Positions 2,894-62,471 of a DNA stretch of 64,000 bases are shown here, one piece after another. Origin of the DNA: an uncultured Methylomirabilota bacterium (GTDB lineage: Bacteria; Methylomirabilota; Methylomirabilia; Methylomirabilales; 2-02-FULL-66-22); contig CAWJHW010000004.1 of the NCBI GenBank assembly GCA_963842855.1, forward strand, positions 72,684 to 136,683, written 5' to 3'. A model generated the notes under the pieces. It worked only from the letters and a program-made list of their open reading frames with translations. It was not told the origin of the DNA and did not search any database. How positions within the stretch are numbered: position 1 is the stretch's first letter; the number at the start of each line of letters is the position of its first letter. A program made the position numbers and the translations under genes.

Positions 2894-3932
2894 TTAAATA
2901 ATACAGCACAATTTCCGCAATGTATCATTGGGAGCATTCCAGATCATATGCTGTTTGGCCACCGCATCGACTAGAGCTTCAAGCCTTTCAAAATAGGTAT
3001 TGTGCGTGCAGAGCCTTCGGGTCAGCTTCCAGACCCGCTCGATCGGGTTCAATTCGGGACTATAGGCCGGGAGAAACTCCAAGGCCAGCTCGTGGCGGTG
3101 GTGCCGGAGGAACGGTTGGAGCACGACCGCGTGGTGGTACTTCGCATTGTCGAGGAGGATCACCATCTCCCGTGCCCTACGTCGGTGTCGGAGCAGCCGG
3201 CCAAGGAAGCCTTGAAACGTCACGGCATTGAACTTCGGGTCAAATTGAGTCACCAGTTTCCCCGTGCTGACGTTGACCGCACCGAATAAGGCCGCCGACT
3301 TGCGGGTCGGCGCCAGCAGGAGAATGGGATCCTTATCCTCTGGGGGCACCCACATGGTGGCTCGGGATCCATGCTGCTGGAAGTGGCATTCATCCAGACT
3401 CCACAGATCCACGTCGTCTCTTCGGGCCAGCCGGCGGCGTTTTTTTAAAAGCCTGCTGCGCCTCCGGATTCGCCCGGGCAATGACCGGCCGCGGTTTTCG
3501 CAGCCGGAACTCCAGGTGATGAAACAACCGTTGACACTGGCGCACGCCCAACACCACCTGCTCGGCCTGGGCGAGGTGGTGCGACAACAGCTTCCCATCC
3601 CAGAGGTTCTGGGCGTATCCGAACGCGCGCGGCGAGGTCCGAAGAGCCCGATTCACGCGCGGCAACTGCTCGGGCGTCAGCCGCTGCGGACGCCCCGGTC
3701 GCTCCTGGTCCTGCAAGCCGCTGAACCCTCTCGTCTCGAAACTCCGGACCCATCGCTGAATGGTGGTCGGATCATGTCCGAACACCCCGCCGACTTCATA
3801 ACAGGACATGCCGTGAGAGACGAGCAACACTCCGTGGAGCCGGTGATCATACCGTGCCTCTTCGGACCGGAGGATTTCGTTCTGCAAGGCGATTTGCATC
3901 ATCTCGCGATCGGTGATCTCCAAACGTCTCAT
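2894..3932 (-). CDS. IS630-family transposase, in two frames joined at an A7 run
   Basis: The HTH frame is 3390..3932. The DDE frame is 2894..3598 (DECHFQQHG, LDNAKYHH, AYSPELNPIERVW). They overlap at AAAAAAA (3440-3446, minus strand). Removing one A gives a single ORF of about 345 aa. This could be slippage, a mutation or a homopolymer error. Confidence 0.8.
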
Positions 3933-4004
3933 CTCGTGTCCCTCCTCAAGCCTAAAATACGCGAGGGACGACGAGAATTCAACAGAATTATGCTGTATTA
4001 CTTA
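2895..4004 (-). mobile_element. IS630-family insertion sequence (~1.1 kb)
   Basis: Imperfect 19-bp terminal inverted repeats match at 17/19: TAAATAATACAGCACAATT (2895-2913) against the reverse complement of 3986-4004, TAAGTAATACAGCATAATT. They enclose an IS630/Tc1-type transposase. Confidence 0.8.
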
Positions 4005-5948: not shown

Positions 5949-6588
5949 GTCTCTTCCGGGTAGAAGGTCTCGCCGGTTGTCGCAAACGGCGCCCCCCCGT
6001 CGGGCCCGACGGCGTCGTCCTCCGGGGGTCTGGACGCCCGATCGTCGACTGGCCCCAGCATGCCGCAATCGCGCGGCGGCTGTCAAGCCGGAAGAGGGGA
6101 AGGAAGAGGGGACGGGCGGGTCAGGAGGAGACCGGCACGTTCGGGGGGCGCTTGCAGCTTCCGAATCGCGGCTATCGGTTCCCCGCCGGACTCAAGTGCA
6201 AGATCCGCTTCCCGGACTAGACCCTCCTGCCGGAATAGGGAAGCCGCGGGATGACCCCATTCTTCGCTCGGCAATCTCGTGAGCATGAACCCAAGCGCAA
6301 TTCGTGTGTTTGCCTGCCATCCAGTATCGCCGCAGGATGTGGACCAGTGAGCGGGTGGGTTCGGATATCTGCAGTTGTTAGCGGTAAGGAGTTTCGGTAT
6401 ATTAGCCCCCAGATTCCCCTGACAAAAAATGTCCGTGGCGGGTCAAACTGTTTACATACCGAGAAGAATGGCACCTGGTTTCCAGGGACGCAGGGACAAG
6501 GCAAAGAAGGGGAATCCGATTACGGAAGTGCCTGTCTTTTCTGGTGAAAACAGCCCTTGCGGCTACTGGCCTGACGGCCGTGCAGCGG

Positions 6589-6605
6589 TGGCATGGATAC
6601 TGCTT
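6589..6605 (+). promoter_or_regulatory. candidate sigma54 (-24/-12) promoter
   Basis: TGGCATGGATACTGCTT fits TGGCAC-N5-TTGCW with correct GG/GC spacing. It lies about 100 nt upstream of the pseudopilin start. A weaker copy, TGGCACCTGGTTTCCA, lies near 6470. Confidence 0.4.
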
Positions 6606-6701
6606 GGGAAAGTGTAGACTCAGTGTATGACTGCGGGACACCTGCTTCACGACGGGAGGACCGTACCTTCGATTTTCATCCATAATCATGAGGGCGTAGA
6701 G

Positions 6702-7154
6702 ATGACCGGACTCCCGCGCAAGACGGGGAAAGGGTTCACCCTGATCGAGCTGCTCATCGTCGTGGTCATCATCGGCCTCCTGGCAGCCATCGCCATCCCC
6801 AACCTCCTGAGTGCCCAGCGGAAGGCGAAATATAGCCGGGCTGCCGCGGATACGAGAAACGCTGTGACCCAGGCCATTGTGTTCGCAACCGACAAGAACG
6901 TCTACCCGACCAGCATCCAGGCGATCCGCGATGCCGGACTGACCAACGTCAGCGACACGGATCCGTGGGGAGTTCCATATGTCCTCTCCCCGACGCTTGC
7001 CGGGGGCCTGCCGCCTGGATACGCCGACGACATATACATCTACAGCAAAGGCACCGGTGCCGCAGGAACCTATCCCGTTCCATTTGTGACCAACACCGGA
7101 ATCGGCGGCTCCGTCGGATATTCCTCGGTCTATGGATCCTGGGCCGGCAGCTAG
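6702..7154 (+). CDS. GspG-like major pseudopilin / type IV pilin-like protein
   Basis: Prepilin N-terminal methylation motif KG|FTLIELLIVVVIIGLLAAIAIP with Glu at +5. DPWGVPY motif as in GspG. Start taken at ATG 6702 inside track ORF 6627..7154. Confidence 0.75.
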   Translation: MTGLPRKTGKGFTLIELLIVVVIIGLLAAIAIPNLLSAQRKAKYSRAAADTRNAVTQAIVFATDKNVYPTSIQAIRDAGLTNVSDTDPWGVPYVLSPTLAGGLPPGYADDIYIYSKGTGAAGTYPVPFVTNTGIGGSVGYSSVYGSWAGS

Positions 7155-8135: not shown

Positions 8136-8335
8136 GGTGAGAGCCTAGAGCCCCGAGCCGCGAGCCGAGAAGCGGCACGACAAGAGAGGGCGTACGAAGG
8201 TACGAGGGGACGAAGGGACGAAATACAGGCTGGCAAGCTGGCAAGCCAGCATGCTGGCCTGCAAGCGTGCAAGCAGCGGCGTACATTCGTACGTGCGTAC
8301 ACTCGTACGCCGTTGGCATGGGGATGACCTCACGC
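8136..8335. repeat. intergenic word-repeat element (GAGCC, GTACGA, GCTGGCAAGC and CGTACAYTCGTACG blocks)
   Basis: Four consecutive blocks of tandem short words fill the aldolase-PHP spacer. Block 8278-8311 recurs almost unchanged at 11480-11513. Confidence 0.7.
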
Positions 8336-8372
8336 CGTTGCTCCTGTGGGTCACCCTCGGCCTCGCGGGAAA

Positions 8373-9215
8373 ATGCGGATTGACCTGCACACGCACACGA
8401 CGGCCTCGGACGGACTGCTGAGTCCGGAGGCCTTAGTGCAAGCCGTCCGGGCCGCCCACCTGGACGTATTCAGCATCACCGACCACGACACGCTAGAAGC
8501 TCTGGGGGAGGCTGAGGCGCGCGCTCGCGCCCTGGGTCTTCGTCTGATCCCAGGGGTTGAGCTTTCCGCCATGTGGCGAAACAAATTTGAGTTGCACCTC
8601 CTGGGCTATTTCTTCGATTCCGCTGGTTCACGGCTGCCCGGCTTCCTCCGCGAGAGGCGAGAGGCCCGCCGTACGCGACTCGAGGCGATGCTCAATCGGC
8701 TGCGTGCGCTGGGCATCGTCGTCGCGGCGGAAGAGGTTCTGGCCTGCGCCATGAATGAAAACGTGGGGCGACCTCATCTCGCCCGGGTCCTGGCGCAGCG
8801 TGGCTTCGTCTCCAACACCGACGAGGCGTTCGACAAGTATCTGGCCGAGGGCAAGGCGGCCTTCGTTCCGCGCCCCGATGTGACCGTCGTCGAGGCGATC
8901 CAGGTGATCCACGAGGCGGGCGGGCTGGCCTCGCTGGCCCATCCCGGCCTGCACGACCATGACGAGGCGATCCCCGACTTGGTCGCGGCCGGGCTGGACG
9001 CGATCGAGGCGTACCACGGAACGCATACCCGCGGCCAGGTGAGGCATTACCGCCGCCTGGCCGAGCGACGGGGACTCTTGGTGACGGGCGGCTCGGACTT
9101 TCACGGGGCCGGGGGGCGTGATTACGCTCCCGCGCCCGGGATGCCTTGCCTGCCGGAGGCGGATTTCTCAAGGCTCGAGGCGGCCGCGTCGCGGCGCGCC
9201 GCCGCGCGCCGCTAG
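8373..9215 (+). CDS. PHP-domain phosphoesterase (TrpH/YciV-like)
   Basis: MRIDLHTHTTASDG start plus the downstream His/Asp metal-ligand pattern of PHP domains. Start taken at ATG 8373. Confidence 0.75.
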   Translation: MRIDLHTHTTASDGLLSPEALVQAVRAAHLDVFSITDHDTLEALGEAEARARALGLRLIPGVELSAMWRNKFELHLLGYFFDSAGSRLPGFLRERREARRTRLEAMLNRLRALGIVVAAEEVLACAMNENVGRPHLARVLAQRGFVSNTDEAFDKYLAEGKAAFVPRPDVTVVEAIQVIHEAGGLASLAHPGLHDHDEAIPDLVAAGLDAIEAYHGTHTRGQVRHYRRLAERRGLLVTGGSDFHGAGGRDYAPAPGMPCLPEADFSRLEAAASRRAAARR

Positions 9216-9512
9216 TGCGGCCTTCCTCGACCTCCATCCCCGCCACGCTTCCGGCCTGTTCCTCGGCTCTCCGGCACCCGCGCGGCTACCCGGCTCCCGG
9301 CTCTTCCCCTCCCCCCGCGGGTACTGGCTGCTTTCCCTCAGGCGCATCGCGGGGCCAGGGGGCTGTTTCCGCGCGATGCTTCCGCCAGCACTGCAAGCAG
9401 GCAGCGCTTGTCAGCCCGAGGCAAATCCAGTATCATCCACCGTCCGCCTGCCGACCCACCGGAGCCGGGGTGCAAGGGGTGCGGGCGGCGGTGCGGAGGG
9501 GGGAGCTTTTCC

Positions 9513-10589
9513 ATGGATGATCTGGACAAGCGACTGCTGAATGTGATCCAAGCGGATTTCCCGCTGGTGTCCCGCCCATTCCAGGCCCTGGGTACGCCAC
9601 GTTCGCTCACAGAAGTTGCGGTCATTGACCGGATCGCCGCCCTCAAGCAGCAGCGGATCATCCGCCAGATCAGTGCCATCTTCGACACCCGCAGCCTCGG
9701 GTATCGAAGCAGTCTGGTGGCGATGCGCGTCCAGCCGGAGAGACTGGACGCGGCCGCGGCGGTGGTGAACGGCCATCCCGGGGTCAGTCACAACTACCAG
9801 CGGAACCACGCCTTCAACCTCTGGTTCACCCTGGCGGTGCCGCCGACGAGCGACTTCGAGTGGACGGTGCAGCACCTGCATGCCATGGCCGGGGCCGATT
9901 CGACGCGGGTCCTGCCCACGCTGCGCCTCTTCAAGATCGGGATGCAGCTAGACATGGAGGGAAAGAACGGGGCGGAGCGCGATGAGTCCGGCGCGGGGGG
10001 ATACACCGATGCGCGTCGCCCGTCGGCCGGCCGGGACGGCCTGCGCCCGATCGACATCGCCGCCATCCGCGAGCTGCAGGAGGACATCCCGTTGATCCCG
10101 GAGCCCTATTGGCCCATGGCGGAACGGATGGGCCTTGCGGAGCCGGTCCTTTTCGAGGTGGCGGCGCACCTTGCCGCGCAGGGATACCTCCGGCGGATGG
10201 CCGCCGTCCTGTACCATCGCGAAGCGGGCTTCCGCGCCAACGCCATGGGTGTGTGGGTCGTGCCCCCCGAGCGAACGGAGGAAGTCGGGCGGATCATGGG
10301 GAGCTTCAAGGCCGTGAGCCACTGCTATCTCCGGCCCACCTACCCGGACTGGCCCTACAGCATCTTCACCATGGTCCACGGGCAGAAGGCGCGCGATTGC
10401 CAGGAGATCATCACGGCCATTTGCCAGGCGACCGGCATCACCGAGTACGCCCTCCTGTACAGCACGAAGGAATACCAGAAGATCCGCCTGAAATACTTCA
10501 CCCCCGAGTTGGACGAATGGGAGGCGCGCGCGCGGCGAGCCGTGGACGATGCGGCCGCACTTCCCGCCCCGGCGGGCCAGCGGAACTAG
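9513..10589 (+). CDS. fused two-module siroheme decarboxylase (AhbA/AhbB, NirDL-like; AsnC/Lrp fold)
   Basis: Two tandem NirD/NirL-type modules. The first begins MDDLDKRLLNVIQADFPLVSRPF. The second begins IDIAAIRELQEDIPLIPEPY. Start taken at ATG 9513. Confidence 0.6.
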   Translation: MDDLDKRLLNVIQADFPLVSRPFQALGTPRSLTEVAVIDRIAALKQQRIIRQISAIFDTRSLGYRSSLVAMRVQPERLDAAAAVVNGHPGVSHNYQRNHAFNLWFTLAVPPTSDFEWTVQHLHAMAGADSTRVLPTLRLFKIGMQLDMEGKNGAERDESGAGGYTDARRPSAGRDGLRPIDIAAIRELQEDIPLIPEPYWPMAERMGLAEPVLFEVAAHLAAQGYLRRMAAVLYHREAGFRANAMGVWVVPPERTEEVGRIMGSFKAVSHCYLRPTYPDWPYSIFTMVHGQKARDCQEIITAICQATGITEYALLYSTKEYQKIRLKYFTPELDEWEARARRAVDDAAALPAPAGQRN

Positions 10590-10693
10590 CCGTTGGGCCA
10601 TCGCCTGAGCGTCATGGGGGGAGGGGACCGAAGCGCCCGCCCCGGCCTGTGCGTTTCCCCCCAGGCGGGCGGATAGGCGGCGAGACAGAGCGC

Positions 10694-11425
10694 ATGGCCG
10701 AAGCCATGGTGGACGTCCAGGGCCTCACGAAGGTGTTCGGGACGACGCTCGCCCTGGATGCCGTGGATCTGCGGGTGGATCCGGGCGAGGTGGTGGCGCT
10801 GCTCGGGCCCAACGGGGCAGGGAAGACCACGCTCCTGAAGCTTCTGGCCACGGCGATCAGGCCGACGGCCGGGGGTGGGCGCGTGCTGGGCCTGGATCTC
10901 TTGAAGGGGCGCGACGCCATCCGGCGCCGGATCGGGATGATCTCTCACAACCACCACCTGTACGAGGATCTGACCGCCGAGGAGAACCTCGAGTTCGCCT
11001 CGGTGATGCACGGGATGCGCGTGGACGGCGGGCCGATCCGGAAGGCGCTCACCGAGGTGGGGCTGGACGGCCAGGCGCGCTCCAAGGTCCGGACCTTCAG
11101 TACCGGGATGAAGCGCCGGCTGGTGATCGCCAAGATGCTCCTCTTCGAGCCGGATCTCCTGTTCCTGGACGAGCCGCACAACACCCTGGATCAGGCGGCC
11201 ATCGCCCTGCTCAACGGCTACGTGGCCTCGGTGGCGGCGCGGGGCGGGGCGGCGGTCGTGGCGACCCACAACCTGTCCCGGGCGTACGACATGGCGGATC
11301 GCTTCATTCTGATGCGGGACGGGGCGGTGGCGTTGCGCGTCCAGAAGCAGGGACTGAGCGCCGAAGAACTGCGGGATCTGTACGGGCGGCACGCGGAGAA
11401 CGCCGACTCACCTAATGCGGAATGA
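10694..11425 (+). CDS. ccmA: heme exporter ATP-binding protein CcmA
   Basis: Walker A GPNGAGKTT, an ABC signature region, and position ahead of ccmB and ccmC. Start at ATG 10694. The 438-aa track ORF is an artefactual extension. Confidence 0.8.
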   Translation: MAEAMVDVQGLTKVFGTTLALDAVDLRVDPGEVVALLGPNGAGKTTLLKLLATAIRPTAGGGRVLGLDLLKGRDAIRRRIGMISHNHHLYEDLTAEENLEFASVMHGMRVDGGPIRKALTEVGLDGQARSKVRTFSTGMKRRLVIAKMLLFEPDLLFLDEPHNTLDQAAIALLNGYVASVAARGGAAVVATHNLSRAYDMADRFILMRDGAVALRVQKQGLSAEELRDLYGRHAENADSPNAE

Positions 11426-11530
11426 ACTGAAAACCAAGGGCGTACGAACGTACGAGAGTTCGAACGTACGGCGTCCGCTCGCGTACATTCGTACATGCGT
11501 ACGCTCGTACGCAGTTCGTTCGTGGGGTGG
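11426..11530. repeat. intercistronic word-repeat element (CGTACG words)
   Basis: GCGTACGAACGTACGAGAGTTCGAACGTACGG plus GCGTACATTCGTACATGCGTACGCTCGTACGC. The second block is near-identical to 8278-8311. Confidence 0.7.
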
Positions 11531-16806: not shown

Positions 16807-17148
16807 ATGGCGGTGGTGATCTCGCTCGGGATCGCGGCAGTGGTGGTCGCGTTCGTGGCGGCCCCGCTCTTCCTGTTGGCGGGGCGTCCCTCGGAGGCGG
16901 AGACGAAAGGGGCTGACCCTTCCGATGGCTTGGCCGATCTTTTGGCAGAGAAAGAGACGATCTACGCGGCCATCCAGGAGCTGGACTTCGACCTCAAGTC
17001 CGGCAAGCTCTCGGCCGAAGACCATGAAGCTCTGCGGCTGCGTCACGAGGCGCAGGCGGCGGCCGTCCTGAAGCGCATAGACGAGCTGCCAGGGACGACC
17101 ACCGCCGAGAGATCCCGCAGCGCCCGGCGGGAGAAGCGGAAGGCATGA
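16807..17148 (+). CDS. CcmI/CycH N-terminal-domain-like small membrane protein
   Basis: 113 aa with one TM and then a helical region (LLAEKETIYAAIQELDFDLKSGKLSAEDHEALR), as in short CcmI-like proteins. 4-nt overlap with the next gene. Confidence 0.5.
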   Translation: MAVVISLGIAAVVVAFVAAPLFLLAGRPSEAETKGADPSDGLADLLAEKETIYAAIQELDFDLKSGKLSAEDHEALRLRHEAQAAAVLKRIDELPGTTTAERSRSARREKRKA

Positions 17149-19364
17149 GGAGCATCCTGGACCAGCTCCGCCAGGCAGGGCTGGATCGCATCCATGCCAA
17201 GCTGCTGGAGGGACGGCGCCTCGACTTCGATGATGGGATGCACCTGTACCAGACGCCCGATCTCACGGCCGTGGGGTACCTGGCGAACCTGGCGCGCGAG
17301 CGGAAGAGCGGCGCCCGGACGTACTTCGTCCGGAACCTCCACGTCAACTACACCAACATCTGCAACAAGCTCTGCAAGTTCTGCTCCTTCTATGCCGCGC
17401 CGAACAGCACCGACGGGCGCGGCTACGTCCTGAGCCCGGAAGAGGCGGCCGCCCGGGTCGCCAAGTACGGCGGGGAGCCGATCCGCGAGATCCACATGGT
17501 CGCGGGGATCAACCCGAAGCTTCCCTACCAGTACTACCTCGACCTCCTGCGGGCCGTGAAGGCGGCGCGGCCCGACGCGCAGATCAAGGCCTTCACCATG
17601 ATCGAGCTGGCCCAGATCGCCCGCGCGGCCAAGCGGTCCCTGGCGGAGGTCCTGCCCGAGCTGAAGGCGGCGGGGCTCACCGCATGCCCCGGGGGCGGCG
17701 CCGAGGTCTTCAGCGATCGCGTCCACGAGGAGCTGTTCCGCGCCAAGCTGGACAACCAGGGCTGGTTCGACGTGGCCCGGGCGGTCCACGCCGCCGGCAT
17801 CCCGAGCAACGCCACGCTCCTGTACGGGCACATCGAGACGCAGGAGGAGAAGGTCCGCCACCTGCTCCACATCCGGGAGCTGCAGGATGCGACCGGCGGG
17901 TTCATGTGCTTCGTGCCCCTGGCCTTCGACCCCAGCCGGACCGAGCTGTCGCATCTTCCCGTCACCACCGGCTACGCCAACCTGCGGGAGATCGCCATGG
18001 CGCGCCTCCTCCTGGACAACTTCCCCCACGTCAAGGCCTTCTGGATCATGATCACGCCGGCCGTAGCCCAGATGGCGCTCTGGTACGGGGCCGACGACAT
18101 CGACGGCACCGTGTCCCACTACGAGATCACCCACGCTCTGGGGACGACCTCGCACCGGCAGGTCCTGGGGACGGCGGAGCTTCTCGACCTCATCGCCGAG
18201 GTGGGGCGCGAGCCGGTGGAGCGCGATGCCCTGTACAATGTGGTAGAAGAGCCGAGAGCCGAGGGCCGAATGCAGCGGGTCATAAGGTCGGCGGATCGCG
18301 GACTGGCGGATGTCGAAGAGAAGATCCTAAACGGGGAGCGCCTGAGCTTCGCGGATGGAGTGCGGCTGTTCCGCGAGGCGAATCCCCTGCAACTCTCCTC
18401 GTGGGCCAACCTCGTCCGCCGGCGCCTCCACCCGGAGGGTCTGGTTACATACGTCATCGGGCGGAACATCAACTACACCAACGTCTGCTGGGTGCAGTGC
18501 AAGTTCTGCAGCTTCTTCCGGCTGCCCGGCGCCGAAGGGGCTTACGTCCTGCCGAGGGAGGCGGTCTTCCGAAAGATTCAGGGGTTGTTGGCGCTGGGCG
18601 GGACCGAGATCCTCATCCAGGGGGGCCTGAATCCGGCGCTGAAGATCGACTATTTCGAGGAGCTGTTCCGCGCCATCAAGGCGCGCTTCCCGATTCACAT
18701 CCACGGGCTGTCGCCGGCCGAGATCATCTACCTGGCTAAGATCTCCAACCTGAGCGAGGGGGACTGTCTCGCGCGCCTCAAGGGCGCTGGAATGGACTCC
18801 ATTCCGGGGGCCGGGGCGGAGATGCTGGTGGACGAGGTGCGCGAGCAGATCGCCCCTCACAAGGACTCCGCGGCGGCGTGGCTCAACCTCATGCGGACGG
18901 CCCACCGGCTCGGCATCCCCTCCACGGTGACCATGATGTACGGGTCGGTGGAGACGGTAGAGCAGCGGGTCGAGCACCTGATCAAGCTGCGCGACCTGCA
19001 GGACGAGACCGGCGGGTTCCGCGCCTTCATCCCCTGGAGCTTCCAGCCCGAGGGGACCCACCTGCCCAACGTCAGGCGCGCCAGCGGGTTCGACTACCTC
19101 CGCACGGTCGCGATCTCGCGGCTGATGCTGGACAACATCAGGAACATCCAGGCGTCCTGGCTGACGCAGGGGCCCAAGATCGGCCAGATCGCCCTCCAGT
19201 ACGGCGTCAACGACATGGGGAGTACGGTCATCGAGGAGAACGTCGTCACGGCCGAGGGGGCGGTCTTCATGGTGCCGCTAGCCGAGATCGAGCGCCTCAT
19301 CCAAGACGCCGGCCTTCGCCCCGCCCGCCGCGACACCCGCTACGAGATTCTAGCCGTCGCCTGA
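17145..19364 (+). CDS. fusion of two MqnE/MqnC-family radical-SAM modules (futalosine menaquinone pathway)
   Basis: 739 aa. Module 1 has NYTNICNKLCKFCSF. Module 2 starts at M376 (ATG 18270) and has NYTNVCWVQCKFCSF. Each module is about 365 aa, which is full length for the family. The junction is a GAGCCGAGAGCCGAGGGCCGA word repeat (18249-18269) with no in-frame stop. Confidence 0.75.
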   Translation: MRSILDQLRQAGLDRIHAKLLEGRRLDFDDGMHLYQTPDLTAVGYLANLARERKSGARTYFVRNLHVNYTNICNKLCKFCSFYAAPNSTDGRGYVLSPEEAAARVAKYGGEPIREIHMVAGINPKLPYQYYLDLLRAVKAARPDAQIKAFTMIELAQIARAAKRSLAEVLPELKAAGLTACPGGGAEVFSDRVHEELFRAKLDNQGWFDVARAVHAAGIPSNATLLYGHIETQEEKVRHLLHIRELQDATGGFMCFVPLAFDPSRTELSHLPVTTGYANLREIAMARLLLDNFPHVKAFWIMITPAVAQMALWYGADDIDGTVSHYEITHALGTTSHRQVLGTAELLDLIAEVGREPVERDALYNVVEEPRAEGRMQRVIRSADRGLADVEEKILNGERLSFADGVRLFREANPLQLSSWANLVRRRLHPEGLVTYVIGRNINYTNVCWVQCKFCSFFRLPGAEGAYVLPREAVFRKIQGLLALGGTEILIQGGLNPALKIDYFEELFRAIKARFPIHIHGLSPAEIIYLAKISNLSEGDCLARLKGAGMDSIPGAGAEMLVDEVREQIAPHKDSAAAWLNLMRTAHRLGIPSTVTMMYGSVETVEQRVEHLIKLRDLQDETGGFRAFIPWSFQPEGTHLPNVRRASGFDYLRTVAISRLMLDNIRNIQASWLTQGPKIGQIALQYGVNDMGSTVIEENVVTAEGAVFMVPLAEIERLIQDAGLRPARRDTRYEILAVA

Positions 19365-19596
19365 CCATGAATCCCGCCCACATGGGGGATCCCCGCAGGG
19401 AATGGTTGGCGCACGTGGCTGTACCTGGTAGCCTGTTCTCGTACGAGGTGGGGGAGAGGGCGGAGGATAGGGGGTGTTGCGTCACGACGCACCATGGGGT
19501 GCCTGCTGTACAGGAGATGAAGGAGGGCCCTTCGGAGCCGCTGTACAGGCAGAGGCTCCAAACCACCCTGAGCTGCTGCAGCCAAAAGCTGTGGTG

Positions 19597-20112
19597 GTGA
19601 GCGTCAGGGGAAAAGGCGTGACGGTGATCATGTCAGGTGGGGGTTGGGGAGACGAGCGCAAGCGAACCACTGCTGACGCATCGAAAGCCTTTAGACGACA
19701 TCAAAACCAGACTCGCACCCTCGGTCTGGGGGCAGCATGGCGGGAACCTGGTTACTGGCCATGTGGTGTCCGGTGTATAGGTGGCGTGACCCCAATCTGG
19801 GCTCCTGTATGGAACGTGAGAACCTTGCCGGTGATGCCAAGGGAAAAGGCCCAAGCGGCGGACCCGCGAGGCCGAAAGTACCGATGCGCTGGCAAGGGGC
19901 GGACTGCCCCGGAGTAGCGTTGAACCAGGGTAACGCCTGGGGAGCGAAGGGGGCAGGTCACTCCACCGATTCCCCCGGGCCAACCGGTAACGGGAGGAGC
20001 TCGCCGGGATCGGCAGAAGGCGGCAGCCTTCGATGAGTGGCACGAGCCGTATGACTGGAGACAGTCACGTACGGATCTGTGAGGGCCTCGGGGTGAAAGT
20101 CCCCGGGGCTAC
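19597..20112 (+). ncRNA. ORF-less group II intron-like ribozyme (5' boundary uncertain, 19470-19600)
   Basis: Domain V is at 20044-20077 (GAGCCGTATGACTGGAGACAGTCACGTACGGATC) with the AGC triad, an AC bulge and a GAGA tetraloop. A domain VI helix follows and the element ends CTAC at 20112. A domain III-like GGGTAACGCC region is at 19912-19953. A GTGAGCG candidate 5' end is at 19597. No RT ORF is present. Confidence 0.6.
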
Positions 20113-20123
20113 TCGGCACCGGC

Positions 20124-20462
20124 ATGCGACGATTGGGCGCGCTGCTTCTGACAATTCTCGTGCTCTCTGGTTCCGTGGCCTACGGCGACGGCTCCTCTCC
20201 TTCCCAGAAATGCATCGCCCCGTTGAAGCAGACCCGGTTTGCGACGCAGTTCCAGCTCGACTCCTACCGGGCTGCTGTAGAGCTTTACCGATCCTGTCTC
20301 GAAGCCTTTGTCAAGGAGCAGGAGCGAGAAATCGAGAACCACCAACGCGCGGTCCAGAGCGCCATCGACGAATGGAATCGCTTCGTGGGGGAGGAAACGA
20401 AAGGGGCTCCCAGCGCTCCGAAGGACAAGGGGGGGCAGCAGGAGGGCGAGTACCGAAACTGA
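20124..20462 (+). CDS. small secreted/periplasmic hypothetical protein
   Basis: 112 aa with signal-peptide-like MRRLGALLLTILVLSGSVAYG followed by a helical, charged region. The ATG lies 12 nt after the intron-like 3' end. Confidence 0.45.
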   Translation: MRRLGALLLTILVLSGSVAYGDGSSPSQKCIAPLKQTRFATQFQLDSYRAAVELYRSCLEAFVKEQEREIENHQRAVQSAIDEWNRFVGEETKGAPSAPKDKGGQQEGEYRN

Positions 20463-20516
20463 TTGGAGGAGGGATTTGTCTTGACAGCGCAGACACGGCC
20501 GGGTCCCCTGTGTTCG

Positions 20517-20576
20517 CAAGACGCCGGCCTTCGCCCCGCCCGCCGCAACACCAAGTACGAACTCCTGCCCGACTGA
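20517..20576 (+). pseudogene. relic 3' end of an MqnC-type gene
   Basis: Encodes QDAGLRPARRNTKYELLPD* against the live C-terminus QDAGLRPARRDTRYEILAVA*. The first 30 nt are identical to 19302-19331. Confidence 0.65.
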
Positions 20577-20641
20577 CCGGATCTTGCTCCCGATGGGAAT
20601 CCTGCCCTGAGTGAGCGGCCCTCCGCGGACGCCGGACCCGT

Positions 20642-20670
20642 TTGACAAGGGCCAGAGATTCGCATACGCT
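20642..20670 (+). promoter_or_regulatory. candidate sigma70-type promoter for rtcB
   Basis: TTGACA (20642-20647), a 17-nt spacer, then TACGCT (20665-20670). It lies about 60 nt upstream of the rtcB ATG. Confidence 0.3.
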
Positions 20671-20730
20671 CCCCGCTAGGCACCGTTCCTCTTCCAGGAC
20701 AGAGGGTCCTGAGACGGGAGGTGATGGAAG

Positions 20731-22182
20731 ATGACAGTGCCGATCGAGCGCGTTGACGAGTATCGCTGGCGGATCCCACCCGAGGCCAAGCCGGGGATGC
20801 GCGTCCCGGCCATCATCTTCGCCGATGAGAAGCTCATGGAGCAGGTCCGTCACGACCTGTCGCTGGAGCAAGCCGCCAACTCGGCGATGCTCCCGGGCAT
20901 CGTCAAAGCGGCCTATGCCATGCCCGACATCCACCAGGGGTACGGCCTCCCCATCGGGGCCGTGGTGGCGACCGATCCCGAGCAGGGGGGGGTGATCACG
21001 CCGGGAGGCGTGGGCTACGACATCAACTGCGGTGTACGCCTCCTCCGGACGGAGCTCACGAAGACGGAGGTCCTGCTGCGGCTCAAAGAGTTGGTGAACC
21101 TGCTCTTTGCTGAGGTCCCGACCGGGGTGGGATCGCACGGCAAGGTCCGCCTCACCCGCGAGAATCAGACGCAGCCGCTCACGGACGGCGCCCGCTGGGC
21201 GGTGTCGCAGGGGATGGGCGAGCCGGAGGACTTGACGCATACGGAGGCATCCGGGTGCATTCCCGGGGCGGATCCGGACGCGGTGAGCCACAAGGCTCAC
21301 GAGCGGGGGCGCGACCAACTGGGAACACTGGGCTCGGGAAATCATTTCCTCGAAGTCCAAACGGTGGAGCGGATCTACGACGAGCAAGTAGCAAACGTCC
21401 TGGGCCTCTTCCCAGGGCAGGTGACAGTGCTCCTGCACACGGGCTCGCGCGGCTTTGGCCACCAAGTCTGCACCGACCACCTTGCCGTCATGGAGCGAGC
21501 CGTGAAGAAGTACGGCATCCAGCTTCCCGACCGGCAGCTCGCCTGCACCCCGGTCAATTCCGGGGAGGCCAAGGCGTATCTCGGCGCCATGCGGGCCGCC
21601 GCCAACTACGCCTGGGCCAACCGGCAGTGCCTCACCCATTGGACCCGGGAGGTCTTTCAGCGGATCTTCAAAAAGTCGCCCCGGGACCTGGGGATGTCGG
21701 TCGTGTACGATGTCGCTCATAACATCGCCAAGGTCGAGGAGCACGAGGTGGACGGCAGGAAGATGCAGCTCGTCGTGCATCGGAAGGGGGCCACGCGGGC
21801 GTTTCCGCCCGGGCATCCCGAGCTGCCCGAGCGGTATCGGAGCATCGGTCAGCCGGTTCTGGTCCCTGGCGACATGGGACGCGCCTCGTTTGTCCTCGTC
21901 GGGACTCAGGGGGCCATGCGGGAGACCTTTGGCAGCACCTGTCATGGGGCCGGACGGCTCCTGAGCCGGGCGGCGGCCGTGCGGGCCGCGAAGGGGCGGT
22001 CCATCGAGCGGGAACTGGAGGACAAACACGGGGTGTACGTCCGCGCCACCGGCCGTGATGCGGTGAAGGAGGAGATGCCGGAGGCGTACAAGGACGTGGA
22101 GGACGTGGTGAGGGTCTGTCACAACGCCGGCATCTCCAAGATGGTGGCGAAGCTCAAGCCACTCGGGTGTATCAAAGGCTAA
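20731..22182 (+). CDS. rtcB: RNA-splicing ligase RtcB
   Basis: 483 aa. MPDIHQGYGLPIG, GSGNHFLEVQ and HTGSRGFGHQV are hallmark RtcB metal and GMP-His motifs. Confidence 0.9.
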   Translation: MTVPIERVDEYRWRIPPEAKPGMRVPAIIFADEKLMEQVRHDLSLEQAANSAMLPGIVKAAYAMPDIHQGYGLPIGAVVATDPEQGGVITPGGVGYDINCGVRLLRTELTKTEVLLRLKELVNLLFAEVPTGVGSHGKVRLTRENQTQPLTDGARWAVSQGMGEPEDLTHTEASGCIPGADPDAVSHKAHERGRDQLGTLGSGNHFLEVQTVERIYDEQVANVLGLFPGQVTVLLHTGSRGFGHQVCTDHLAVMERAVKKYGIQLPDRQLACTPVNSGEAKAYLGAMRAAANYAWANRQCLTHWTREVFQRIFKKSPRDLGMSVVYDVAHNIAKVEEHEVDGRKMQLVVHRKGATRAFPPGHPELPERYRSIGQPVLVPGDMGRASFVLVGTQGAMRETFGSTCHGAGRLLSRAAAVRAAKGRSIERELEDKHGVYVRATGRDAVKEEMPEAYKDVEDVVRVCHNAGISKMVAKLKPLGCIKG

Positions 22183-33758: not shown

Positions 33759-35084
33759 CACTGCTGTCCCAACATTATTCGAAAAGATTCAACTGGTTAC
33801 CGATATCGCTCTCCTCCACAGAGGCATGGGGTAGCGTAAGGGCCTGCAAGAGCGAGATCTTCTCGAAGAGGGAGACGCTCAGGATCTGGAGGATCGTGTA
33901 GGGGGTGGCCGCCAACTGGAGCCGCTGCTTGACGATGGCGACCAAGACGTACACTGCGATGGCGATCCAGATCTGGGTCTTGACCGCGTTCTCGGAGGTC
34001 CCGTAGAAGGCCTTGATCCGCAGGTGCGGCTTGGTCCACTTGAAGAACAGCTCTACCTGCCACCGGCACTTGGAGCGCTGGGCAATGGTCAGCGCCGGGA
34101 GCGCGAAGTTGGTGGTGAGGAACACGAGCCGCTTGCGCGTCTCCACGTCGAAGAACCGGATGCGGCGCAGGCGTTCGGGATAGCCCCGCGTGCTGTAGAA
34201 GCCGTACAGGCGGAGGGTCTGATCGGAGTGGACCCCGGTCGTCCAGTCGACGGGCCGCGAGTCGAGGTAGCGGTAGCGGAAGTTCCGCTTGGCCCGGGTC
34301 ACGAAGAAGCCCAGCGCCTGGGGGGAGGCGGTACCGCCGGGCGAAGTCCAGGTAGCCCCGATCGAAGACAGAGATGGCGCCGGCCTCCACCACCAGGGTA
34401 TCGAGGATATTGACGTCGTGCACGGTCCCCGGCGTGAGGAAGAGCACACTGGGGATGTGGCCGCGCAGGTCCAGCAGGGTGGGGAGCTTTACCGCCCCGT
34501 TGCGTTTGCGGAACGTGGCCCAGGGGAACAGCGCCAGGCACAGATCGATGACGGTGGAGTCCAGGGCGTAGACGGTCTGCGCCAGTGCGACCCCGAACGC
34601 TTCCGTGGCGTACGGGGTACGGGCGGTCGCGATCAGCCCCTGAGCGAAGTCGGCGTAGGTCTGCCAGTCGCGCACCTCGTTGGCATGGGCGAGCGTGTTG
34701 CGGGAGACCGTGCCGCGGAACCCCATGTGGTAGAGCTTGGGTTGGGCGACCCGCAGGCAGGCCTGAATATCCCGCAGGCTCTCCCGGAAGGTCAACTGGG
34801 CAAAGGCCATGCAGAGGCACTGGTCCTAGCACGAGAAGCTCTTGACCTTGTAGTTTCCCTGGTAGCGGTCGACGCACTTGCGGAACTCGTACGGGGAAAC
34901 GAAGTCCATCCGTTGGGCGAAGATCGTTGTGCCAGCGTTCACGGGCCTTCTCCCCGCTCGAAAATGCGAGAGTATGGCCCATGGAGGCTTGCCAGTTCAA
35001 ATCGATAAATGGACGGATGCGCATAATCCCCTGTAACATCAGCACGTATCGCTACGCTGGCGACTCAACGTTGGGACAGCAGTG
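33759..35084 (-). mobile_element. IS4-family insertion sequence (1326 bp), transposase inactivated
   Basis: Perfect 15-bp terminal inverted repeats: CACTGCTGTCCCAAC (33759-33773) and GTTGGGACAGCAGTG (35070-35084). Confidence 0.8.
33775..34942 (-). pseudogene. IS4-family (DUF4372 + DDE_Tnp_1) transposase with a nonsense codon and a frameshift
   Basis: The N-terminus reads VNAGTTIFAQRMDFVSPYEFRKCVDRYQGNYKVKSFSC*DQCLCMAFAQLT. The TAG at 34826-34828 sits where homologues have Trp. The frame switches near 34325-34345, between DRGYLDFARRY and ALGFFVTRAKRNFRYRYL. Confidence 0.8.
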
Positions 35085-40289: not shown

Positions 40290-40625
40290 TCAGCAATTCT
40301 CGCTGTGGAACAGAGCCAAGGCAAAGTCGTGCCCACGTGGTTCTCGGAAGGCAATGCCGTGGCTAATCTGGGTGCCCGGAGGATCGGCCCACGCGACCTG
40401 CCCGTTGACTGCCAGGAACCCCCGGCGGGTCTGGAGGACGAGGGCCAGGACGCTCCCCGGGACGATCCGGACGGGAAACTTGGCCATCAGCCCGCCCCCG
40501 CCGATGTTCCACACCGTGCCGTGCACCTCGGTGTCGCCGAACTGCGCCGCCCGGCCGACGACCGGCACCGACACGGGCAGCCGCACGAAGCGGCGGTGTC
40601 CCACCTCTTGGCTGCGCTGCCTCAT
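40290..40625 (-). CDS. PilZ-domain protein
   Basis: RRFVRLPV ... VWNIGGGGLM (RxxxR plus a [D/N]xSxxG-like motif). ATGA overlap with the upstream receiver gene. Confidence 0.7.
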   Translation of the reverse strand: MRQRSQEVGHRRFVRLPVSVPVVGRAAQFGDTEVHGTVWNIGGGGLMAKFPVRIVPGSVLALVLQTRRGFLAVNGQVAWADPPGTQISHGIAFREPRGHDFALALFHSENC

Positions 40626-45117: not shown

Positions 45118-47259
45118 TCAGGAGGAGAAGAACGCCCTGAGCCGCCGGGCAGACTCCGGGTTCGGATGGTCGAATCGAACCAGATGGTCAAACGTGGGGG
45201 GAGCGCCAGGAGCCGCCGTGGGTGGTTGAACCTGGACCACCCTGCCGGGAACTGCAATCTCTCGATCGCGCCGAATCAGTCGAAGCTTCAGTTTCTGCCC
45301 CGCGGAAAGTCGCTCCTCGAAGGCCGCTACCATCCCCACTTCGTTGATGCTGGAGATGCGACCTCGCAGCCGCTGGAGGGTCTCCCCGCCCGAGCTCTCG
45401 ACTGTGCACTCAACCACCATGTCCGCGAAGCGGCCTTGGCGCCTCGCCCCTTTCTCGTCCACCCGGTGGGGTCCGGCGGAGGGCGGCGAACCCCCCGGCG
45501 AGCCTGGTGCCTCCACCTGGGCCTGCGTCGCGCCAGACATCCTCCGGGTCAGATCGGCCTCGCGGGGCGGGGGGGCCGCTCGGGTTCCGGCCTCCCGGGG
45601 GCCGAGGTCTGGCAATGTCAGGCCGGGAACGACAGCGAACTGGAGGCCTTCCTCGCGCTGTTGCGTCGAGGCCGCCTCAGCCCTCTGGACAGGGTGGTCG
45701 TCCGCCCGCGGCTGCCGCCGCCGTTCTGCTTCGGCGCGCTGAATCTCAAGCTCTCCGGTGAGCGCAGTGACGCGAGCGGCCAAACGTTCGTTCTCCTCCC
45801 GAAGCTGTTGTTCCCGCCCGGCGGATTCCGCTCGCTCTTGCCGGAGCCGTCGCCAGTCGGCAGTGATCTGCTGCACGCGTTCGATCAGGAGCGTCCGCCC
45901 CGCCACGAGCTTGCGGAGCCGCTCGGGAAGCTGATCCGTAGTTCCCAGCACCTCCCGAACGGACTCGGCGAGCTGCCTCAGGCTCGCGAGCTCCTCCTGA
46001 GTCTGCGCCGACGTCTCTGTCTGAAGTTTCACGCGCTGCACTAGCTCCGCCCAGTGCGCCTCCTCCTGATCGGCTTCCCCACCTCCGCCGGCCCAATCCT
46101 GTGGCCCCCCCACGATGGCCGCAATCTCGCGGAGGAACCCCCGAGCGGCTTGCATCGTCGTGTTCAGGCTGGAGAACTCTTCCCACTGAGAGCGGAGCCG
46201 ATCCTGGAGATGTTCCGCTTGGGCCCGTTCTCCCTCCAGGGAACTCTGGAGGCTCGTGATCTGCTCCTGCGAGCCGGCGAGGTCTCTCCGGGCCGTTTCC
46301 AGGAGCCCCTCCGTGCTGGCCAGGCTGTCGCGCAGCGCGCCCTGCTCCTGCTGGGCCTGGGCGGCGGACTGGCGTGCCTGCTGCAGCGCCTCTTCCATCT
46401 CCGCCAGGCGCGCGCCATGCCGTTGGGCGTCGCGCTCCCTCTCGCGCTCCACCTCCTGGATCCGCTGGCGGAGTTCCACCCCCTGCCGGGTGGACTCTGC
46501 CATGGCGGCCTGGATCTGCTGGATCTCCCGGGTGCGGCCCTCCAGCGCCGCCTGACTTTGCGACAGCTCCTGGCGGAGCTGATCGAGCTTCCGCGTCCGC
46601 TCCTCTGCAGTAAGCTGCAGTCTCTTCCGCTCGGCGGTCAGAGAGTCCATCTGCGCCGTGAGGGAACTCTGGAGGCTCGTGATCTGCTCCTGCGAGCCGG
46701 CGAGGTCTCTCCGGGCCGTTTCCAGGAGCCTCTCCGTGCTGGCCAGGCTGTCGCGCAGCGCGCCCTGCTCCTGCTGGGCCTGGGCGGCGGACTGGCGTAC
46801 CCGTAGGAGCTCCCGCTCCAGGGTACGGACCATCTCGCGCAGTTCCCCCGCCTGCCGGGTGGAATCCCGGACCGCGGCCTCGAGTTTCTCGATCTCCCGG
46901 GTGCGGCCCTCCAGCGCCGCCTGGCTCTGGGCCAGCGCCTCCCGGAGTTGGTCCAGGTCCCGCCTCCGCTCCTCAAGGCCGGACCGCAGTTCATCCCGCT
47001 CGGCGGTCAGAGAGCCCATCGGCGCCGCAAGCCCGCCCCGCTCCGCCAGGATCGTACGTCGCTCATTCTGGAGGATGGTCAGGCGGTCTCGCAGTTCCTC
47101 GATTTCTCGCCCCCGCCGACGGAACCCCTCGTTCAAGGAATCCAGGATCGTGACGAGCCCCTTGGTATACCCGATGGCGTCGCCCAGGACCTTATCGTGC
47201 CACGCATCCGGTGGTGGCGGAACCTGCTGTTTGTTATCGGTGGCGTCCGACTCGGGCAT
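45118..47259 (-). CDS. large coiled-coil protein with a C-terminal PilZ domain
   Basis: 713 aa from ATG 47259, with GGAGGA 5 nt upstream. About 550 aa of heptad-like Glu/Arg/Leu/Gln sequence. C-terminal RRQGRFADMVV...GRISSINEVGM PilZ-like motifs. Confidence 0.7.
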   Translation of the reverse strand: MPESDATDNKQQVPPPPDAWHDKVLGDAIGYTKGLVTILDSLNEGFRRRGREIEELRDRLTILQNERRTILAERGGLAAPMGSLTAERDELRSGLEERRRDLDQLREALAQSQAALEGRTREIEKLEAAVRDSTRQAGELREMVRTLERELLRVRQSAAQAQQEQGALRDSLASTERLLETARRDLAGSQEQITSLQSSLTAQMDSLTAERKRLQLTAEERTRKLDQLRQELSQSQAALEGRTREIQQIQAAMAESTRQGVELRQRIQEVERERERDAQRHGARLAEMEEALQQARQSAAQAQQEQGALRDSLASTEGLLETARRDLAGSQEQITSLQSSLEGERAQAEHLQDRLRSQWEEFSSLNTTMQAARGFLREIAAIVGGPQDWAGGGGEADQEEAHWAELVQRVKLQTETSAQTQEELASLRQLAESVREVLGTTDQLPERLRKLVAGRTLLIERVQQITADWRRLRQERAESAGREQQLREENERLAARVTALTGELEIQRAEAERRRQPRADDHPVQRAEAASTQQREEGLQFAVVPGLTLPDLGPREAGTRAAPPPREADLTRRMSGATQAQVEAPGSPGGSPPSAGPHRVDEKGARRQGRFADMVVECTVESSGGETLQRLRGRISSINEVGMVAAFEERLSAGQKLKLRLIRRDREIAVPGRVVQVQPPTAAPGAPPTFDHLVRFDHPNPESARRLRAFFSS
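46239..46798. repeat. internal tandem duplication within the coiled-coil gene
   Basis: The 137-bp segments 46239-46375 and 46662-46798 differ at about 1 position (offset 423 bp). A second shared block, GATCTCCCGGGTGCGGCCCTCCAGCGCCGCCTG, lies at about 46522 and 46891 (offset 369 bp). Confidence 0.75.
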
Positions 47260-47778
47260 CGGTTCCTCCCCGGCGCTCCTAACTACAGACCTTGCGGGAA
47301 CACCCGCGGCCTCGGGCAAGCCGGAAAATCGGCGACTCGCTTCTCTCCCACAATCGGATTCCGTGGGAAGAGAGATACCGCCCGCCGAAATCGGAAATGT
47401 CAACGGATGCCAGTCCGGTCAGCGCCAGCGGCATCCTGTGGAATCCTATAGCTGACGCTGAAGCGGACGTCAAGCCTACAGGTGCACAGCCAGGTGATTC
47501 TGGCGCGAGGGTGAAGCAGCCGGTGGCCCCTGAGATATGGCCTGGATGGAGGCGACGTCCGCGAGAGGGTTTTGCGCTCTCCGAAAAACGGGTCGGGACC
47601 GCCCGCCTCCTTTCACCCTAGCACCACGAGCCGCAGCCCCGCATCTGGCCGAACGTGGGCGGCCATCACTACCACTGTTCTTGACCGTCCGCCTGCCGTG
47701 TGTTACATAGTCGAGCAGTCGGCTTCCTTGGCATCGGCTGTGGTATCCTGCGAGCGCAAGCCTTGCGGAGGCGCCAGC

Positions 47779-57575: not shown

Positions 57576-57863
57576 ATGGCCATCCACGTGACAAAGACCC
57601 TGCAGAAGGCCCTGGTCGAGCTTCAGGCGGAGCGGGAGCGGATCTTCAAGCAGAGCGTCGCCATTCAGAAGGCATTGGCGGCAGGCGGGTCGCGGCGGCG
57701 GCCTGCCGTTCGGGGCCAGGCCGCGAGTCGTGGGAAGCGGGCGCGAAAAGGGATGAGCGCCGCCGCACGCAAGGCCGTGAGCCGACGGATGAAGGCGTAC
57801 TGGGCGAAGCGGAGGGCAGCGTCGGCGAAGGGCAAAGCGCGGGGGACGCAAAAGGCCGAGTAA
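57576..57863 (+). CDS. small basic coiled-coil protein, possible DNA-binding/nucleoid-associated
   Basis: 95 aa with a strong AGGAGGA RBS. N-terminal helix, then a Lys/Arg-rich tail (RKGMSAAARKAVSRRMKAYWAKRRA). Confidence 0.5.
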   Translation: MAIHVTKTLQKALVELQAERERIFKQSVAIQKALAAGGSRRRPAVRGQAASRGKRARKGMSAAARKAVSRRMKAYWAKRRAASAKGKARGTQKAE

Positions 57864-59896: not shown

Positions 59897-60195
59897 CGCT
59901 TCGCGCTCGCAGCGGGGATGCGACCGAGCGCGCCGGCCCAACAATCGTTCTGCATGGCCCACTGGCCGCTCGTGGCGTGCAACTCCTTCCCGTTGGGCGT
60001 GGCGGCCTTGCGCTCGCCTGCCGTGGCGAACCGGTCCGCAGCGCCCTCCTGCAGTTGGGTCTTCCACTGCACGATCTGGTTGGGGTGGACAGCCTACTGC
60101 GGCGTGAGCTCCGCGAGGGTCCGATCGCCCCGCAGGGCCGCGCGTGCCACCTTGGCCTTGACGGGTGCGGCGTGATTTCGTCGGGGTCGTTTCAT
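59893..60195 (-). pseudogene. IS3-family OrfA (HTH) with an in-frame TAG
   Basis: MKRPRRNHAAPVKAKVARAALRGDRTLAELTPQ*AVHPNQIVQWKTQL. TAG at 60094-60096 sits where homologues have Tyr. RBS AAGGAGA is upstream. Confidence 0.7.
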
Positions 60196-62419: not shown

Positions 62420-62471
62420 AAAGACCCTGCAGAAGGCCCTGGTCGAGCTTCAGGCGGAGCGGGAGCGGATC
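62418..62471 (+). other. 54-nt exact copy of the 5' coding region of the gene at 57576..57863
   Basis: ACAAAGACCCTGCAGAAGGCCCTGGTCGAGCTTCAGGCGGAGCGGGAGCGGATC is identical to 57591-57644. It is joined head-to-head to the truncated PilZ copy. Confidence 0.8.

Follow-up and report, generated by a model that had tools for sequence, protein, structure and literature searches.

A small-gene insertion at the 3′ end of mqnC in a Methylomirabilota bacterium, most likely gained by ordinary recombination

Introduction

In Escherichia coli, the prophage e14 (and also phage 21) occupies the 3′ end of icd and leaves the C-terminal pseudogene icdC (PMC13626634, citing Hill et al. 1989). A comparable arrangement is discussed here for mqnC, the gene for cyclic dehypoxanthinyl futalosine synthase, and its neighbor rtcB in a stretch of 64,000 nucleotides (nt) from an uncultured Methylomirabilota bacterium related to the NC10 organism Ca. 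Methylomirabilis (the window; GenBank assembly GCA_963842855.1, contig CAWJHW010000004.1, positions 72,684 to 136,683). As in the e14/icd case, an insert has entered the 3′ end of a housekeeping gene, an alternative C-terminal end is supplied and the original end is orphaned beyond the insert; a chimeric gene is restored when the insert is excised or the copies recombine (PMC13626634). The two cases differ, however, in that e14 is a prophage of 15 kb that encodes its own integrase and is excised upon SOS induction, whereas the insert in the window has 574 bp, one cargo gene and no recombinase, and its relatives in related lineages have variable right junctions. Of the traits that mark the e14/icd type, direct repeats and a replacement end with orphan and empty site were found, while an element-encoded recombinase and recurrence of the same boundaries were not.

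Foreign DNA can reportedly also be admitted through one homologous anchor combined with one non-homologous or microhomology join, with no enzyme encoded by the incoming DNA, an observation said to go back to de Vries and Wackernagel and to Prudhomme and colleagues (both in 2002). Such events of homology-facilitated illegitimate recombination are laboratory ones and usually delete recipient DNA. The locus discussed here would resemble them in having a homologous anchor and another type of join beside a conserved gene, again with no element-encoded enzyme, but its joint is placed before the homology ends, so that a 30-nt duplication results and no sequence is deleted. The microhomology seen in the sequence at the joint, CAAGAC, is only suggestive. 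The term itself has been used in studies of Acinetobacter and others (PMC8116780, PMC3410848). Integron cassettes are a further comparison, since they too are units of ~0.6 kb with one promoter-proximal open reading frame (ORF), and one related locus (L103; L and P numbers denote the loci and proteins compared) has two units in tandem. This candidate was rejected: there is no attC (an imperfect inverted repeat with GTTRRRY cores), intI or attI, and the boundaries of the unit are those of a coding gene end.

The empty site and the 574-bp insertion

The 30-mer CAAGACGCCGGCCTTCGCCCCGCCCGCCGC is present in exactly two copies in the window (19302-19331 and 20517-20546); no third copy was found there at up to three mismatches, and 100 shuffles gave 0 matches. 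Copy 1 encodes Q720-R729 of a 739-amino-acid (aa) ORF (17145-19364) with the C-terminus ...DTRYEILAVA* (tail 1), and copy 2 reads on in frame into NTKYELLPD* (tail 2), with its stop codon at 20574-20576. Exact-match search and ORF calls agree on these points with the first-pass annotation, made from the letters of the window, which had listed both copies and both frame ends. Beyond the 30-mer, similarity between the copies persists in a diverged form, giving 55 nt at 84% identity (repeat family D8).

The decisive comparison is with L188 (JGI 3300056618). This locus reads ...GAGCGCCTCATC/30-mer/AACACCAAGTACGAACTCCTGCCCAACTGA/CCGGATCTTGCTCCC... (slashes separate the blocks) and then continues into rtcB; it has a single 30-mer, and its mqnC ends ...NTKYELLPN*. 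It is the empty site that the first-pass annotation had proposed to look for, and it runs from the repeat into NTKYELLPN* and then rtcB. Identity to the window is 95-98% along mqn to position 19331 and 96% from 20517 into rtcB. Because L188 matches on both sides, the window represents the empty site plus a clean addition of 574 bp, with no backbone lost, and the second 30-mer copy is the displaced original end, while the intervening DNA supplies the replacement end, as had been suggested. Hence, mqnC with a single 30-mer and tail 2 was ancestrally followed, in this Methylomirabilis lineage, by a spacer of 154 nt and rtcB, an order that L188 retains. The live mqnC of the window now ends in the tail type of another haplotype, and the resident tail 2 is left as a 60-nt orphan before rtcB.

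Sites that distinguish L188 from L096, a related locus with tail 1, locate the switch. Up to 19331 the window is mostly of the L188 type, and the last six sites, all in tail 1, are of the L096 type. A donor tract reaching upstream of the 30-mer, which would make mqnC a mosaic, is ruled out by the L188-like state of the window up to 19331.

The interval between the repeats is the product of two events of different age. Look-ups with the exact RtcB protein and the protein of the 112-aa ORF between the repeats retrieved 11-15 contigs from other samples (ENA, JGI, an NCBI metagenome-assembled genome and Logan). All of them carry mqn (739 aa), the 112-aa ORF and rtcB in this order, with both 30-mers, and the repeat spacing is 574 nt compared with 1215 nt in the window. 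The two 30-mers in the same order are seen in at least nine other samples built by different assemblers, and the 574-bp insertion is thus fixed in the species of the window. The remainder is a 641-nt group II intron, which is separate and later. In other words, the single 1.2-kb cassette of the first-pass annotation does not hold, and its "about 230 nt" of unassigned sequence falls into three parts: a leader of 112 nt (19365-19476), 42 nt at the start of the intron and a trailer of 54 nt (20463-20516). The older unit consists of tail 1, the leader, a gene for a secreted protein of 112/115 aa, the trailer and the second 30-mer (Table 1). As argued below, it was most likely inserted by ordinary recombination and is not a new kind of mobile element.

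Table 1. Features of the mqn-rtcB region; positions are those of the window.
Feature	Position	Strand	Basis or remark
Fused mqnE-mqnC ORF, 739 aa	17145..19364	+	C-terminal half is MqnC; 3′ end duplicated
30-mer copy 1, in the live gene	19302..19331	+	Exact match; backbone-type, identical to L188
Tail 1 (DTRYEILAVA*), replacement 3′ end carried by the insert	19332..19364	+	Switch from L188-type to L096-type exactly here
Leader, 112 nt	19365..19476	+	Last ~30 nt from the DUF4129 3′ end and spacer at the small gene's other locus
ORF-less group II intron, 641 nt, 5′-UUGCG...CUACUCGGC-3′, RmInt1-like (IIB3/class D)	19477..20117	+	Rfam and intron-less alleles
Small secreted-protein gene	20118..20462	+	ATG at 20124 gives 112 aa; reading from GTG at 19474 after splicing would give 115 aa
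54-nt trailer (T54), right-hand joint of the insert	20463..20516	+	Weakly similar to right ends of related modules
30-mer copy 2, start of orphan mqnC end	20517..20546	+	Exact match; sharp left edge
Tail 2 (NTKYELLPD*), displaced original mqnC 3′ end	20547..20576	+	One nt from the live end of L188
Original mqnC-rtcB spacer, conserved block TTGACAAGGG...CATACGCT	20577..20730	+	Colinear with L188 (96%) and L017
rtcB, 483 aa, original downstream neighbor of mqnC	20731..22182	+	ORF; PF01139 in precomputed annotation

Tail haplotypes, cargo and the variable spacer

The C-terminal half of the 739-aa ORF is identified as MqnC by the NCBIfam equivalog TIGR03699 (472 bits, cut-off 428); the N-terminal half is MqnE-like, with 419.8 bits relative to the NCBIfam cut-off of 434.6, and Pfam finds two Radical_SAM and two CofH_C domains. 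Within the 90% cluster of this protein, relatives share ...IQDAGLRPARR and differ at their C-termini. P0037, encoded on the L188 contig, ends NTKYELLPN*, P0033 and P0040 end NTRYEILAVA*, and P0032 ends NTRYEILAN*. The ~45 residues before the tail are identical in all four, which is ample homology for a crossover. The window protein is equidistant from its tail 1 and tail 2 relatives, and tail 2 is of the same type as the mqnC ends of L107 and L108. Mere coding conservation was initially ruled out as the cause of the 30-nt identity, since none of 13 other lineages has the states CAA and CTT-CGC; the identity was later re-explained, as the motif is common to close relatives with either tail.

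The cargo is the sole supported ORF in the insert, and its 112-aa protein has no Pfam or NCBIfam match above cut-off. Homologues (59-96% identity) occur in two other settings: a 115-aa type closes a bpMoxR-DUF58-DUF4129 operon (L094, L098-L100), and a 112-aa type is flanked in L184 by an aldo-keto reductase gene on one side and rtcB on the other. Homology of the window to these other small-gene loci is limited to about -35 to +10 around the ORF, and the -35 part covers the last bases of DUF4129. Consistent with this, homology of the leader to L094 and L095 starts about 30-35 nt 5′ of the ATG; no convincing homology was found between the leader and the L103 spacer. The leader carries a Shine-Dalgarno sequence, GGAGGA (19462-19467), six bases before a probable GTG start (19474-19476).

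Tail 1 together with the leader is also found in L096, L102 and L183. Across these related lineages, tail 1, leader and small gene share the left junction and are followed by four different right-hand neighbors. In the window and L183 the small gene is followed by the orphan and rtcB, in L096 by a 150-nt orphan (95% identical to the mqnC end of L096 itself) and then asparaginase, in L102 by asparaginase without an orphan, and in L101 by a Y1-transposase gene. Moreover, the mqn 3′ half and the small gene of the window are closest to L096 (91-93%), whereas rtcB is 80-81% identical to that of L096 and 82% to that of L017 or L014. These sequence identities indicate a phylogenetic incongruence across the joint.

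The right end of the module is less well matched. Global alignment of T54 with trailer2 is not significant (p=0.17), and local matches are weak. Exactly 54 nt past the small-gene stop, CAAGACG occurs in L096 (4510-4516) and in L102 (1103-1109), the same offset as that of the start of the second 30-mer in the window (20517-20523), and the intervening 54 nt are unrelated; this may be coincidence, microhomology or a motif. CAAGACA stands at the corresponding place in L094 and L098. Homology between the window trailer and those of all four loci is weak (p about 0.02-0.03, or not significant). In the window itself, a candidate ORF of 31 codons (20481-20576) with a TTG start after GGAGGAGGG may span the trailer and the orphan mqnC end.

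The spacer between mqnC and rtcB is hypervariable when species are compared. It holds 157 nt and no genes in the more distant species of L017, where mqnC has a tail 2-like end (...ILPG*), MazE and PIN genes in L014, a gene for a solute-binding protein in L015 and one for a Y1/IS200-like transposase in L016. Transposase genes of the latter kind (PF01797, with a weak DnaA_C-like helix-turn-helix) lie in or beside variable islets at L016:5123-6232, L101:498-1515 and L098:7300-7348. In the species of the window, mqnE and mqnC form a single 739-aa ORF (P0026, P0028 and P0029, on about 29 contigs), and in the close relatives L188, L096, L014 and L103 they are separate with a 4-nt overlap. The mqnE/mqnC junction region (18191-18435) is the most divergent part, with 57-84% identity to L188.

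Gene-end brackets at other loci

Gene-end brackets without recombinases recur at other loci. In a self-comparison of 170 loci (1.09 Mb), a sample collected around mqnC and biased accordingly, they were essentially the only such repeats besides mqnE/mqnC paralog motifs. In L096, 150 nt of the mqnC end bracket the small-gene module. L103 (3437-4964) has ~794-bp tandem units, 76-89% identical, in each of which a spacer separates the mqnC tail from a coiled-coil ORF (142 aa in one unit and 164 aa in the other). In L032 (Chthonomonadia metagenome-assembled genome JBGPOG010000307; 2787-5031), ~130 nt of the mqnC end bracket a gene for a 664-aa RNB-domain RNase, which starts 1 nt past the mqnC stop. 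The 3′ end of DUF4129 plays this part in L094, where 88 nt (3900-3987 and 6279-6366) enclose the small gene, a zinc-ribbon ORF, MazE and PIN. With respect to these loci, a homologue of the L103 cargo is present upstream of the bpMoxR operon in L094 (L094:1-210), a truncated rtcB 5′ fragment (ORF 6565-6843) lies 200 nt past the second DUF4129 copy of L094, and the orphan mqnC tail of L032 resembles the normal tails of other Chthonomonadales.

How the insertion arose

We consider it probable that the 574 bp were gained when two haplotypes of the hypervariable mqnC-rtcB spacer, both from a single species complex, recombined. This reading is favored because both tail types occur on the same 30-mer and behind ~45 identical residues within one species complex. 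In the proposed course of events, a small-gene haplotype would have recombined with an empty haplotype, with one crossover in the conserved mqnC end and the second join placed 30 nt upstream of the point of tail divergence. The second join might have been illegitimate, by homology-facilitated illegitimate or by Campbell-like additive integration; or else the donor may already have had an orphan, in which a homologous crossover took place. The "30-bp repeat" would then be the stretch of mqnC from the right-hand joint to the point where the haplotype tails diverge, and a dedicated recombinase would not be needed. Two things that additive integration leads one to expect are observed: backbone identity is unbroken to 19331, with the donor type from there on, and tail 1 relatives encoding the same 30-mer exist (P0033 and P0040). 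At a later time, the RmInt1-like intron inserted precisely after the probable GTG start of the small gene in the strain of the window.

Several points weigh against haplotype recombination. An identity of 30 nt is short for RecA-dependent exchange, no donor haplotype in which T54 comes after tail 1 was recovered, and no source of T54 was found among the loci compared. Gene-end orphans recur (mqnC in the window, L096, L103 and L032; DUF4129 in L094) and look more systematic than random scars. In addition, the right-end motif ACAAGACGACTAGAACTGCGACG (also given as ACAAGACGACTAG...ACG) precedes the orphans of L096 (by 21 nt) and L094 (by 3 nt), which belong to different target genes (p=0.0003), and it resembles the terminus of an element. 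Finally, L188 could be a secondary precise deletion between two 30-mers and not ancestral. The presence of the right-end motif in L096 and L094 is compatible with common descent of the modules, and also with homology-armed cassette traffic. That the brackets at mqnC (window, L096, L103, L032) and DUF4129 (L094) are all products of one systematic, recombinase-free traffic of this kind appears quite unlikely to us. Were it true, cargo lying between a gene 3′ end and an orphan copy would have both flanks matching the same target. The unit would enter a naive allele by ordinary homologous recombination, resulting in a clean insertion with a duplication and no loss, and it would leave via recombination between the repeats.

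The first-pass annotation had taken the locus for the signature of site-specific integration, with mobilization in trans or homologous exchange with another allele as the possible routes. Homologous exchange is the part that we retain. Mobilization in trans would imply a 574-bp non-autonomous satellite with its att core in the 30-mer, moved by a tyrosine or serine recombinase encoded elsewhere or by a host recombinase, and cycles of integration and excision would keep the att block identical to the host. This model accounts for the exact 30-nt identity with sharp edges and lineage-specific states (CAA and CTT-CGC included) and for the clean empty site in L188. It also fits the orphans seen repeatedly, in several lineages, at one and the same gene end, the right-end motif beside the orphans in L094 and L096, and the toxin-antitoxin and transposase genes that occupy the same spacer in other species. 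However, a recombinase was found neither within nor beside the five bracketed inserts. The interval in the window encodes no integrase, transposase or reverse transcriptase (RT), a point on which ORF and profile searches bear out the first-pass annotation, and among the window ORFs scanned there is no tyrosine or serine recombinase, RT or IntI-like protein; the only DDE transposase genes are far off (33775-34449 and 59069-60067). Neither an att-like or attC-like structure nor terminal inverted or arm-type repeats were found at the insert, where a hairpin of 15 nt at the joint, weak and 73% complementary, is all that was seen. The viral contigs scanned with the 30-mer, the leader and the small protein gave no match and no attP-like copy. 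Repeat lengths and left boundaries vary between the inserts (30, about 80, 88, about 130 and 150 nt), L102 has the module without an orphan, and one left junction leads to four right-hand neighbors. Moreover, the lineage-specific 30-mer is common to relatives with either tail, so that no "resetting" of an att site is needed. Site-specific integration is, in our view, an unlikely explanation. A transposon or insertion sequence with target-site duplication was also considered and is ruled out: terminal inverted repeats and a transposase are missing, and because the start of the insert is a gene tail that is homologous to the original one but has diverged from it, target-site duplication cannot produce it.

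A different order of events would make the filled state the older one and L188 a derived precise deletion. Here an ancient in situ tandem duplication of the mqnC end, as in L103, would have been followed by tail divergence, cargo replacement and a 30-nt gene conversion, and L188 would have lost the unit by recombination between the repeats. Such an exchange between the two 30-mers would yield exactly the L188 sequence, L103 is a true tandem duplication of mqnC tail, spacer and coiled-coil gene with units 76-89% identical, and the small gene is found beside rtcB in three contexts (window, L184 and L094). Yet the two units of the window share only the mqnC tail, and mqnC with a tail 2-like end followed directly by rtcB is also the state of the more distant L017. 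Furthermore, a conversion tract of exactly 30 nt between 55-nt repeats of 84% identity is not to be expected, and tail 1 groups with the small-gene haplotypes and not with the backbone. These data make an older duplication very unlikely. There is next to no probability that chimeric assembly of the reads of two strains produced the duplication or the intron; for the duplication, the first-pass annotation had named an assembly artefact as a possible refutation. The source is metagenomic, and close haplotypes with either tail coexist in public data, but the identical filled structure comes from at least nine independent samples and assemblers, the 3′ junction of the intron was assembled independently in L013, and the exact 739-aa protein of the window is encoded on a contig of 845,616 nt.

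The group II intron

RmInt1 is classed as IIB3/class D (PMC5894124). Bacterial group II introns that lack an ORF are rare and thought to depend on a related intron-encoded protein (IEP) acting in trans (PMC4424553). The "group II intron-like RNA" of the first-pass annotation proved to be a real intron of this kind. Rfam models match at 19519-19638 (RF01999, domains D1-D4, 117.5 bits, cut-off 36) and at 20042-20117 (RF00029, D5/D6, 52.9 bits, cut-off 40), and the fold has a z-score of -6.2 relative to shuffles. The boundaries are set by the intron-less alleles, which read GGGGGTG/ACCGGC (longer: GGAGGATAGGGGGTG/ACCGGCATG; the slash marks the insertion point), and no other placement is possible. 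No supported ORF for an RT/maturase, or any other, exists in the 641 nt, and the intron is therefore ORF-less. It has no counterpart in any other contig of the species except L013, nor in L183 (99% identical), L101, L096 and L102; consequently, it is a recent, strain-level gain in the strain of the window. L013, from another run, starts with the last 28 nt of the intron, an independent assembly of the 3′ junction and the sole other copy among the loci compared.

At other loci the small gene starts ATG-ACC-GGC-ATG (the genes at their native locus begin ATGACCGGCATG), and the window reads GTG/ACC-GGC-ATG, which places the intron between the probable start codon and codon 2. CACCC, a sequence that resembles EBS1 (exon-binding site 1), lies in the loop of a hairpin at intron position 240, and the last five bases of the exon, GGGTG, are complementary to it. 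The closest relatives are ORF-less copies, one of 605 nt with 72% identity on the Methylosinus plasmid pMSC49b and others on Rhizobium plasmids, and RmInt1-type introns with ltrA in Sinorhizobium meliloti (S. meliloti), which are about 70% identical. The match to RF01999 (D1-D4) and to D5/D6 is shared with the ORF-less introns of the RmInt1 lineage, but the window intron differs from that lineage in its U1, its 3′ GC and its site after a start codon. Its termini, UUGCG and GC, do not match the canonical ones (5′ GUGYG, 3′ AY). A U at position 1 is common to both ORF-less copies, UUGCG in the window (19477) and UUGUG in pMSC49b (L189:1465-1475), and RmInt1-type introns with ltrA have GUGUG. No IEP or RT is encoded among the window ORFs scanned, and the intron was presumably mobilized by an IEP encoded elsewhere in the genome.

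Other features of the window

No terminator was seen in the insert, and the window has no tRNA genes that could serve as alternative att sites. With regard to DNA uptake or other routes of transfer, it has genes for PilM, a PilO-like protein and a secretin. A 54-nt exact direct repeat (57591-57644 and 62418-62471), the duplicated 5′ start of a 95-aa ORF (MAIHVTKTLQKALVELQAERERI...), brackets 4.8 kb with an rve-type DDE gene (59069-60067) and response regulators and may be another recombination bracket; it is adjoined by a 202-nt repeat that is 87% identical (40389-40590 relative to 62222-62423). Clusters of GTACG-rich repeats (e.g., GCGTACATTCGTACGTGCGTACACTCGTACG) at 8187-8314 and 11437-11516, about 3.2 kb apart, flank the genes at 8346-11392. 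Internal tandem repeats of 369-423 nt, 76-94% identical, are present at 46238-47027 in an ORF for a 761-aa coiled-coil/PilZ-domain protein (45118-47403, minus strand).

Significance

For annotators, the locus is a reminder that a short orphan ORF combined with a "cassette" should not be labeled a mobile element. The intron is present in some strains and absent from others, a rarity among ORF-less IIB3 introns, and gives a snapshot of intron mobility at the level of the population; it has a non-canonical U1 and comes from an uncultivated methanotroph lineage. With respect to the insertion, L188 and the window constitute a natural before-and-after pair, in which one gene was gained inside the coding end of mqnC and the gene was kept intact by a donated tail, with no element-encoded recombinase. 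Earlier records of such restoration came mostly from prophages that bear an integrase. In NC10 bacteria, the mqnC-rtcB spacer is a recombination hot spot, and it is with the islet, not with the gene, that the last ~10 codons of mqnC move.

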